Shown: in pieces, positions 9,001-10,360 of the stretch
Layout of the letters: every line of letters begins with the position of its first letter
How positions within the stretch are numbered: the first letter of the stretch is position 1
From: a virus
Lineage: Duplodnaviria > Heunggongvirae > Uroviricota > Caudoviricetes
Reading direction: 5' to 3' (one strand)
Length of the DNA: 10,360 bases
IMG/VR virus record: IMGVR_UViG_2617270975_000013
Program-made: the position numbers

Positions 9001-10360
9001 AGCCAGTTAACATTTTTTTCGCACAACAAACTGAATAATAAAGATAAAAACCGCAAAAATGCCCGGGCAGCCAGTTAACATGTTAACTGGCCTGAAACAG
9101 GAATTTTTTCTCTGCATGAGAGGGGGGGCGGTGTCCGGGGCGATCGTTTTTTTCGCCGGATGATCCCCCCCCGGGGCGGATCACAGTCCGATGATATCGT
9201 CTGCCCTGCCATGACCTCCGGACACCTCCGGCAGCGTCGGGTCCGGCATACCACTCGCCGTTTCACTGACTGACTTCTGGCGATGGCATTCGGTACAGAG
9301 CGTCCAGAGATTCGTCTCCTCATTACCACCACCGAACTGAAGTGCAATGCGGTGATCGAGTTCACTGTCACAGAGGTCAACCACACGACCACAGAGACAG
9401 CACTGCCCGGCATCCCTGAGCCAGATATGACGCTTGAGGGAAACACGTGCACTGCCACTGACACGACGCTGTTCCCCCTTCAGAATATTCACCCGTCGGG
9501 TGTTCAGAGTTTTGATTCTGCTCTGGAGTGTACGAAGCTCAGCCATGTAAAATCCCCGTCATATGGCAATCAGTAAAGGAAATAAATATGTCATCGAAAA
9601 ACCGGACCCGCAGAACCACAACCCGCAATATCCGTTTCCCCAATCACATGATTGAACAGATCAACATCGCCCTTGAGCATAAAGGGTCCAGTAACTTTTC
9701 AGCGTGGGTTATTGAAGCCTGCAGAAGAAGGCTGTCAACAGAGAGTTCGGGTATGAATTACATAATTAAGTAACATGGTGTTCACAGAACACGCAGTTAC
9801 CGGACACATCAGTTTTCCATTCGCTCCCCGGCAGTACAGGCTTCCCCTCTGACGGGATAGCCTGAAAAAATAACACAGAAAATTATTTGTTATAATTAAT
9901 ATAACTTACTCAAAAAAAAGCGACGAGAAAATCAGCATCAACGAACAATAAGCGCCAATACGTGATAACAAATGGCAGCCATATTTATCTGCAGTATAAG
10001 CAATGGACAGGATAACCACACCAGAAACCGTCAGCATAAAATCCATTTGAACTTCCCCGGACAAAATCGACTCATCTAAAGATTTACAGCTCTTTTTATT
10101 ATCAATATGTTAAAAGTAAAATAAACAGATGTTCAATAACACGAATACAAAAACGTGCTGAAATTCAATGAATCCATTTCTGTGTCATCAATTAATAGTG
10201 ATAAACATCCGGCTTCTTCCACCATCGCACCGGACAGGCGACTATGAGGGGACAACGCCGCGCTCCGTTAACGCGGTAAACCCCGGTGTGTATCGTTTTT
10301 GATTATCCCCGCACACTCGCGCAGAGGAGTCTCCCTGTCGGGCTGCGGTCTCTGTTAATG

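Follow-up and report, generated by a model that had tools for sequence, protein, structure and literature searches.

The G/C-rich segment that separates the HNH endonuclease gene from terS (positions 9115-9180 of the window, by which we mean the whole 10,360-nt stretch of DNA analysed here) very probably contains the cos site of a lambdoid prophage of the type formed by the long-tailed Stx phages of E. coli, with a packaging terminase of the HK97/D3 type. Relatives of this prophage include BP-4795, 2851, 1717 and Lys8385Vzw. As judged from the sequence, the site is a cos of the HK97/D3 kind, predicted to yield a 10-base 3' overhang, and not one of the lambda kind with its 12-nt 5' overhang. 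This assignment draws on identity with an end-mapped phage and on homology to the genome ends of three others (Bcep176, D3 and HK97), as well as on the conserved surrounding module and the families to which the neighboring genes belong. The cos site of this group of phages is already known, having been mapped before in a near-identical phage.

Genomic context and affinities of the prophage

The genes relevant here are all encoded by the minus strand and follow the order HNH, a 289-bp non-coding gap, terS, terL and HK97-like head genes, which confirms the HK97-like HNH-cos-terS-terL arrangement described in the original prediction. The genes and other elements recognized in the window are:

9528-9773, plus strand: DUF3950 (YlcI/YnfO family) gene
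9181..9546, minus strand: HNH endonuclease gene (121 aa; Pfam HNH, PF01844, E=2e-6; PHROG 589, E=1e-42)
9180-8892: non-coding gap between HNH and terS (289 bp)
8328..8891, minus strand: small terminase gene terS (187 aa, GTG start; Terminase_2, PF03592, E=2e-8; PHROG 641, E=1e-66)
6670..8331, minus strand: large terminase gene terL (553 aa, HK97-class; TerL_ATPase, PF03354, E=1.6e-11; TerL_nuclease, PF20441, E=2.4e-9)
4669-6606, minus strand: prohead protease-major capsid fusion ORF (645 aa)
3093-4457, minus strand: portal ORF (454 aa)
1711-3096, minus strand: 461-aa ORF of no clear family
1388-1714, minus strand: head-tail connector gene
1322-645 and 645-298: tnpA and tnpB, respectively, of an IS66-family element contained within window 1-1374

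By PHROG the TerL protein is a terminase large subunit, and it can be aligned over its full length with gp2, the TerL of HK97, to which it is 23% identical (E=3e-12). Long-tailed Stx1a, Stx2a and Stx2c converting phages, BP-4795, 2851, 1717, YYZ-2008 and phi330 among them, match the region at 90-96% identity, and at least 80% of the window is covered at one place in 1108 of the 5426 complete E. coli genomes. An intact relative displays an ordinary lambdoid late region comprising Q, the lysis genes, HNH, the terminase, and the head and tail genes. On the virion genome, HNH would be the final gene before the right-hand terminus.

The DUF3950 gene is convergent with the 5' end of the HNH gene, the two overlapping by 19 nt. 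In the head region, a single ORF encodes the prohead protease (S78) and the major capsid protein as a fusion and is placed ahead of the portal gene, an order that is unusual for HK97-like heads. The portal ORF and the 461-aa ORF share a 4-nt overlap (window 1711-4457, minus strand), and RefSeq treats the two, in a 99% identical genome, as a single 'frameshifted' portal pseudogene. The IS66-family element lies just past the connector stop (1388) and breaks the late operon, with IS-free relatives aligning from 1375 onwards. Given this insertion right after the connector gene, the present copy of the prophage may never form virions itself, and its cos may serve only with particles supplied by a helper.

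The cohesive ends of a near-identical phage

The Stx1 phage Lys8385Vzw was induced and its ends were determined with PhageTerm, which assigned it to the cos type, with cohesive ends of the 3' kind and CGCCCCCCCT as the cohesive sequence closing the record; this is a computational call made in a single paper (Zhang et al. 2021, PMC7946995). The record (MT225100) ends in ...GATCGCTCCGGACACCGCCCCCCCT and starts with CTCACGCAGAGAAAAAATTCC, and the minus strand of the window at the homologous junction reads ...GATCGCCCCGGACACCGCCCCCCCT followed by CTCATGCAGAGAAAAAATTCC. At the cut itself the record ends in ...GGACACCGCCCCCCCT and restarts with CTCACGCAGAG, and the window reads ...GGACACCGCCCCCCCT and then CTCATGCAGAG. 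As the end and the start of the record coincide with homologous bases of the window, the cohesive sequence corresponds to window positions 9130-9121 on the minus strand. When joined end to start, the record aligns with the window without a break from HNH to terL, at 96% over 2880 nt. The placement of the virion genome ends in the segment 9115-9180, as originally proposed, agrees with the published cohesive sequence of this relative falling at 9121-9130, and also with the homologous positions being genome ends in Bcep176 and D3.

The likeness between Lys8385Vzw and the window extends to all parts of the packaging region. The gap is 97% identical and the TerL, HNH ('putative DNase') and TerS proteins are respectively 98.6%, 96.7% and 90% identical; the cohesive sequence CGCCCCCCCT and its flanks are the same, and terS runs from base 230 of the end-oriented record. 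The 289-bp gap holds eight differences, among them a G7 in Lys8385Vzw as against a G8 in the G-run of the window, and CTCACGC as against CTCATGC after the cut. The window copy is an integrated prophage with the IS66 insertion, whereas Lys8385Vzw is an induced phage.

Other record ends proved unsuitable as markers of the cut. Those of phi330, vB_CB2a and CF121c are arbitrary or set before terS. The ends of IMG/VR contigs, considered as a proxy for virion ends, were likewise discarded: the 71 matches are nearly all internal, with two starting 4-5 nt from the nick.

Architecture of the cos site

Reading along the minus strand, from the HNH stop codon toward terS, the site can be divided into the parts given below, where we infer the positions of the nicks in this particular prophage:

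9161..9183, minus strand: G-run box, with G8 (9172-9165) followed by ATCA, inside an imperfect palindrome that overlaps the HNH stop
9137..9160, minus strand: spacer, with an A7 tract and a local inverted repeat, CCGGCGA...TCGCCCCGG
9131..9136, minus strand: left-nick box GGACAC; predicted plus-strand nick between 9130 and 9131
9121..9130, minus strand: cohesive-end sequence CGCCCCCCCT (AGGGGGGGCG on the plus strand); predicted 10-nt 3' overhang
9100..9120, minus strand: right-flank box CTCATGCAGAGA, followed by AAAAATT and CC; predicted minus-strand nick between 9121 and 9120; would enter the capsid ahead of all other DNA
8962..9091, no strand assigned: five AGTTAACAT repeats, candidate TerS recognition sites comparable to cosB

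A distance of 34 nt separates the G-run box from the left nick downstream of it, and the cut is followed after 230 nt by the terS start. The left-nick box borders the cohesive sequence in Lys8385Vzw, Bcep176, D3 and HK97. Given that the overhang measures 9 nt in D3, the left nick in the window could be off by one base, and the overhang could be a D3-like one of 9 nt.

The general description on which the cos site was first proposed holds in part. The segment 9115-9180 has a G+C content of 69.7%, exceeding the 55.6% of the whole window and the 45.3% of the remainder of the HNH-terS gap, and it adjoins the HNH stop codon (TGA at 9183-9181, minus strand). The partial two-fold symmetry ascribed to it exists in the form of an imperfect palindrome, TGATCCCCCCC/GGGGCGGATCA, at 9161-9183, with 91% complementarity, but it is not a conserved property: the G-run is retained among relatives while the palindrome arms are not. 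The conserved features of the site are instead the G-run box and the asymmetric boxes that flank both nicks.

The resemblance to lambda that was also put forward does not withstand scrutiny. The core GGGCGGTGTCC is present at 9126-9136 on the plus strand and matches the lambda cohesive end GGGCGGCGACC at 9 of 11 positions, in a region that is G/C-rich and has local symmetry, as might be anticipated if this were a lambda-type cosN nicked within that core by a gpA/Nu1-like terminase to give 12-nt 5' overhangs. However, the match is at chance level: four matches with at most two mismatches were found against 5.55 expected, 161 of 200 shuffles reach four, and a better match, with one mismatch, lies within the capsid gene (4821-4831). 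The 11-mer is on the strand opposite to terS, which is the reverse of how the cohesive end is oriented in lambda. In addition, Pfam recovers PF03354/PF20441 and Terminase_2 only, with no gpA family, and the 3' ends of Lys8385Vzw map to 9121-9130, which the lambda-like 11-mer overlaps by 5 bases only (9126-9130). Lambda cosN and cosB are like the window in general plan, with a nick site, small-subunit sites downstream and the terminase genes beside cos, but lambda differs in its 12-nt 5' overhang, its gpA/Nu1 terminase and its lack of an HNH gene. We regard a lambda-type cosN at this locus as extremely improbable. The original prediction was right about the location of the cos and its HK97-type nature, and wrong in the comparison with lambda.

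Conservation of the module among TerL-selected loci

The conservation of the HK97/D3-type cos was assessed in loci gathered through TerL alone, and not through cos. The resulting 80 loci have TerL identities of 59-84% and come from Enterobacterales, Burkholderiales, Pseudomonadales and Xanthomonadales, among others. A tblastn match to the window HNH (31-68% identity) is present in 34 of the 80, nearly always just upstream of terS. A module of ~95 bp is conserved just upstream of terS in 65 loci (TerL 59-84% identity) and consists, in order, of the G-run box, a spacer of ~22 nt, (G)GA[CA]AC/CG with 8 variable bases, /C.CA[CT]GC[AG][CG]AGA, an A/T tract and CCCC (here and below, a slash within or before a motif marks a nick). 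A small profile of the core finds one match per locus, always on the TerL strand and, where terS could be placed, just upstream of it.

The right-flank consensus C.CAcGCgcAGAA, together with the A/T tract and CCCC, is conserved in 62-65 loci. In an alignment of 62 loci, the G-run is invariant or at least 90% conserved (alignment columns G24-G26), with one G being invariant. Across the left nick, A9132, C9131 and C9130 (alignment columns A60, C61 and C62) are invariant in the 62 loci, as are C9118 and A9117 just past the right nick, and A9109. Within the overhang the inner bases vary, with both CGCCCCCCCT and CGCGCCCCCT occurring among E. coli prophages, and the spacer sequence is also variable among relatives. 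In the Salmonella phage FSL SP-016, blastn detects the cos core alone (80% identity) and not the flanking genes; at the protein level, its HNH and TerS are respectively 68% and 48% identical to those of the window.

In the PPompW prophages (PPompW_699, LC567826; 3810-5280 of the locus analysed) an IS110-family element, ISEc20, is inserted exactly in the C/G-run of the G-box (~9166-9170 in window terms), and beyond it HNH and the lysis genes are missing, with tRNAs and Q following. As a consequence of this insertion, the cos is separated from its upstream box in these prophages.

The module is probably transcribed within the late operon, and it could conceivably function at the RNA level in the late transcript, whether as a terminator, a site of processing, a ribozyme or a hairpin with a stabilising effect, rather than as a site at which DNA is cut. 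Such a role would accord with the strong spacer hairpins of some relatives (z=-6.5 in L035 and -3.0 in L056; the window has z=-1.7) and with the hammerhead ribozyme reported from a Bcep176 intergenic region. However, the median z across the family is -0.32, and there is no terminator-like site at 8800-9600. RNAalifold recovers no consensus structure, and pairing in the candidate helix covers 47.8% of cells, equivalent to the 46.3% seen in the shuffled control; a conserved hairpin in the spacer, between the G-box and the nick, is thus rejected as a feature of the family. No Rfam family reaches its gathering score in the window or in about 16-19 related loci, and the window matches at E<=10 are noise. 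The cos-proximal ends of Bcep176 and vB_CB2a give no Rfam match either, and the published accounts of the hammerhead give no location for it. Taken together, these results make it most unlikely that the module acts as RNA instead of as a DNA cutting site.

Relationship to the cos sites of distant phages

The linear record of Bcep176 (NC_007497) carries a 10-nt repeat, CGCACGTTCC, at both ends, at the homologous position. In gene orientation the sequence ...GGGAGGGGGTGCCAAAAGTCTGATGGCCGCCTCGGCCTAGAC, then CGCACGTTCC, then CTCACGCGCAGAAAATTTTCCCTTTTCAGG... aligns base for base with the module of the window, such that the whole module is shared, including the G-box and the TAGAC that precedes CGCACGTTCC. 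The TerL and TerS of Bcep176 are respectively 58% and 37% identical to those of the window, and a GTTAA motif is found at the Bcep176 terS start. Bcep176 differs from the window in the interior of the overhang, in its short gap, which is free of an expanded repeat array, and in its HNH protein, which is of another subtype with no detectable similarity to the window HNH (E=0.084).

The cos of Pseudomonas phage D3 is described as a 9-bp 3' cohesive end, GCGCCCCCA, that supports the transduction of cos plasmids (Sharp et al. 1990, as cited in PMC12407980). The right end of D3 reads ...GGGGTGGGGCGGGTCAAAACC...GGACACC followed by GCGCCCCCA, with the same G-box ahead. The upstream half is nearly identical to that of the window, and an HNH gene is located just before it, with a product 33% identical to the window HNH (E=8e-8). 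D3 departs from the window in having an overhang of 9 nt rather than 10, an unrelated sequence past the cut (GGTCTTTTTCC...), an unrelated TerS and a TerL that is just 21% identical (E=1e-13).

The ends of HK97 and HK022 read G9-10ATCAAATC...ATGAC followed by CGCCGCCAAA, and their overhangs are 10-nt and 3' (HK97 literature). Like the window, these phages have the HNH-cos-terS-terL order, a 10-nt 3' overhang and an A/T tract downstream of the cut, along with a G9-10 box 32 nt before GAC/CG. Their downstream flank is unrelated to that of the window. The TerS of HK97 recognizes a single 15-bp site at +15 to +29 and is of a different family from the window TerS, and the HK97 TerS-DNA structure is for this reason not transferable to the present system.

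The stretches that hold the G-box and the left nick, numbered within the individual loci analysed, are:

HK97: 975-1033
HK022: 398-452
D3: 475-527
Bcep176: 1-60
Window: 9121-9172

HK97, HK022, D3, Bcep176 and the window thus have in common a G-run box that precedes an AC/CG left nick by 32-34 bp, the distance being 32-33 nt in HK97, HK022 and Bcep176. The phages that share this box have TerL proteins that are 21-58% identical and unrelated TerS proteins, and D3 shares the upstream half of the module alone.

These comparisons also bear on headful (pac) packaging, under which the segment would be merely intergenic or regulatory and the virion ends would be permuted. Small terminase subunits of the Terminase_2 type are found in pac phages too, and one database note on phi330 calls its genome 'circularly permutated', but the same note mentions cohesive ends. 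Moreover, Lys8385Vzw is typed as cos by PhageTerm, and the TerL relatives Bcep176, D3 and HK97 all belong to the cos phages, their ends being fixed at the homologous site. Nor would a pac site be expected to have a 95-bp non-coding module in which bases around two positions 10 bp apart are invariant. Headful packaging is hence a very improbable explanation.

Repeats downstream of the cut

All five matches to AGTTAACAT in the 10.4-kb window fall at 8966-9088, inside the 130 bp of 8962-9091, against a window-wide expectation of 1.2, and a perfect 22-bp palindrome, GCCAGTTAACATGTTAACTGGC, at 9070-9091 forms part of this array. GTTAA[AC] motifs are found downstream of the cut in all 31 of the 31 loci with a homologous TerS, at a mean of 3.0 as against 0.16 upstream. 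In many loci whose TerS gave no tblastn match, AAATCA[AG] repeats are found instead. This co-variation of motif and TerS across loci is the basis for describing the AGTTAACAT repeats as cosB-like, and they are probably the recognition sites of TerS.

In several individual loci, including L016, L023 and L026, (G)AAATCA[AG] is repeated ~40-150 nt past the core, and the TerS proteins of these loci are not Terminase_2-like. The type of repeat follows the type of TerS, as if each TerS had a repeat of its own.

A model for packaging

By analogy with HK97, TerS would mark the site, TerL and the HNH protein would cut it, and packaging would proceed toward terS, with the late transcript and packaging both following the window's minus strand. 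The predicted binding targets of TerS are the GTTAAC repeats, which lie 30-160 bp beyond the cut. TerL, aided by the adjacent HNH protein, would then nick the DNA twice, 10 bp apart, between 9121 and 9120 on the minus strand and between 9130 and 9131 on the plus strand, giving 10-nt 3' overhangs of which CGCCCCCCCT would be carried by the HNH-side end. DNA would enter the head from CTCATGCAG..., with terS first, followed by terL and the head genes, and packaging would stop at the next cos, making HNH the last gene to be packaged. The conserved G-run box, which precedes the left nick by 34 bp, probably provides a further recognition element for cutting or termination, in the manner of cosQ.

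In HK97 the HNH protein gp74 interacts with TerL, stimulates its cutting and is needed for the cutting of cos (HK97 literature). The window HNH has no detectable similarity to gp74 (E=0.085) or, as noted above, to the HNH of Bcep176; its participation in cutting, and the need for it, are accordingly proposed from its position and domain. Given that the upstream half of the module is shared in spite of this dissimilarity of the HNH proteins, it appears that recognition of the site lies with the terminase rather than with HNH, as the pattern suggests.

Implications

The present analysis provides a solid annotation of a known site and leaves current understanding unchanged. It gives the probable virion genome ends and direction of packaging for a very common type of E. 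coli prophage, to which many Stx1, Stx2a and Stx2c converting phages belong. A defined cos makes it easier to orient prophage annotations, to design cos plasmids and to predict which defective prophages a co-resident helper could package by providing the terminase. The module shared across families is useful as a pattern with which to search proteobacterial prophages for 3'-cos sites, and provides testable sub-sites for packaging of the HK97 type.

More tentatively, the G-run box might be a cos sub-site that is new to the literature within our reach, cosQ-like in termination or nicking and common to the HNH-assisted 3'-cos phages HK97, HK022, D3 and Bcep176 and the Stx phages in spite of unrelated TerS proteins and of TerL identities of only about 21-23%, with the cos as a whole having a two-part mosaic structure; we consider this possible but rather doubtful. 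If it were true, the upstream half of cos would travel together with HNH and the right end of the genome, and the downstream half would travel with terS and terL.
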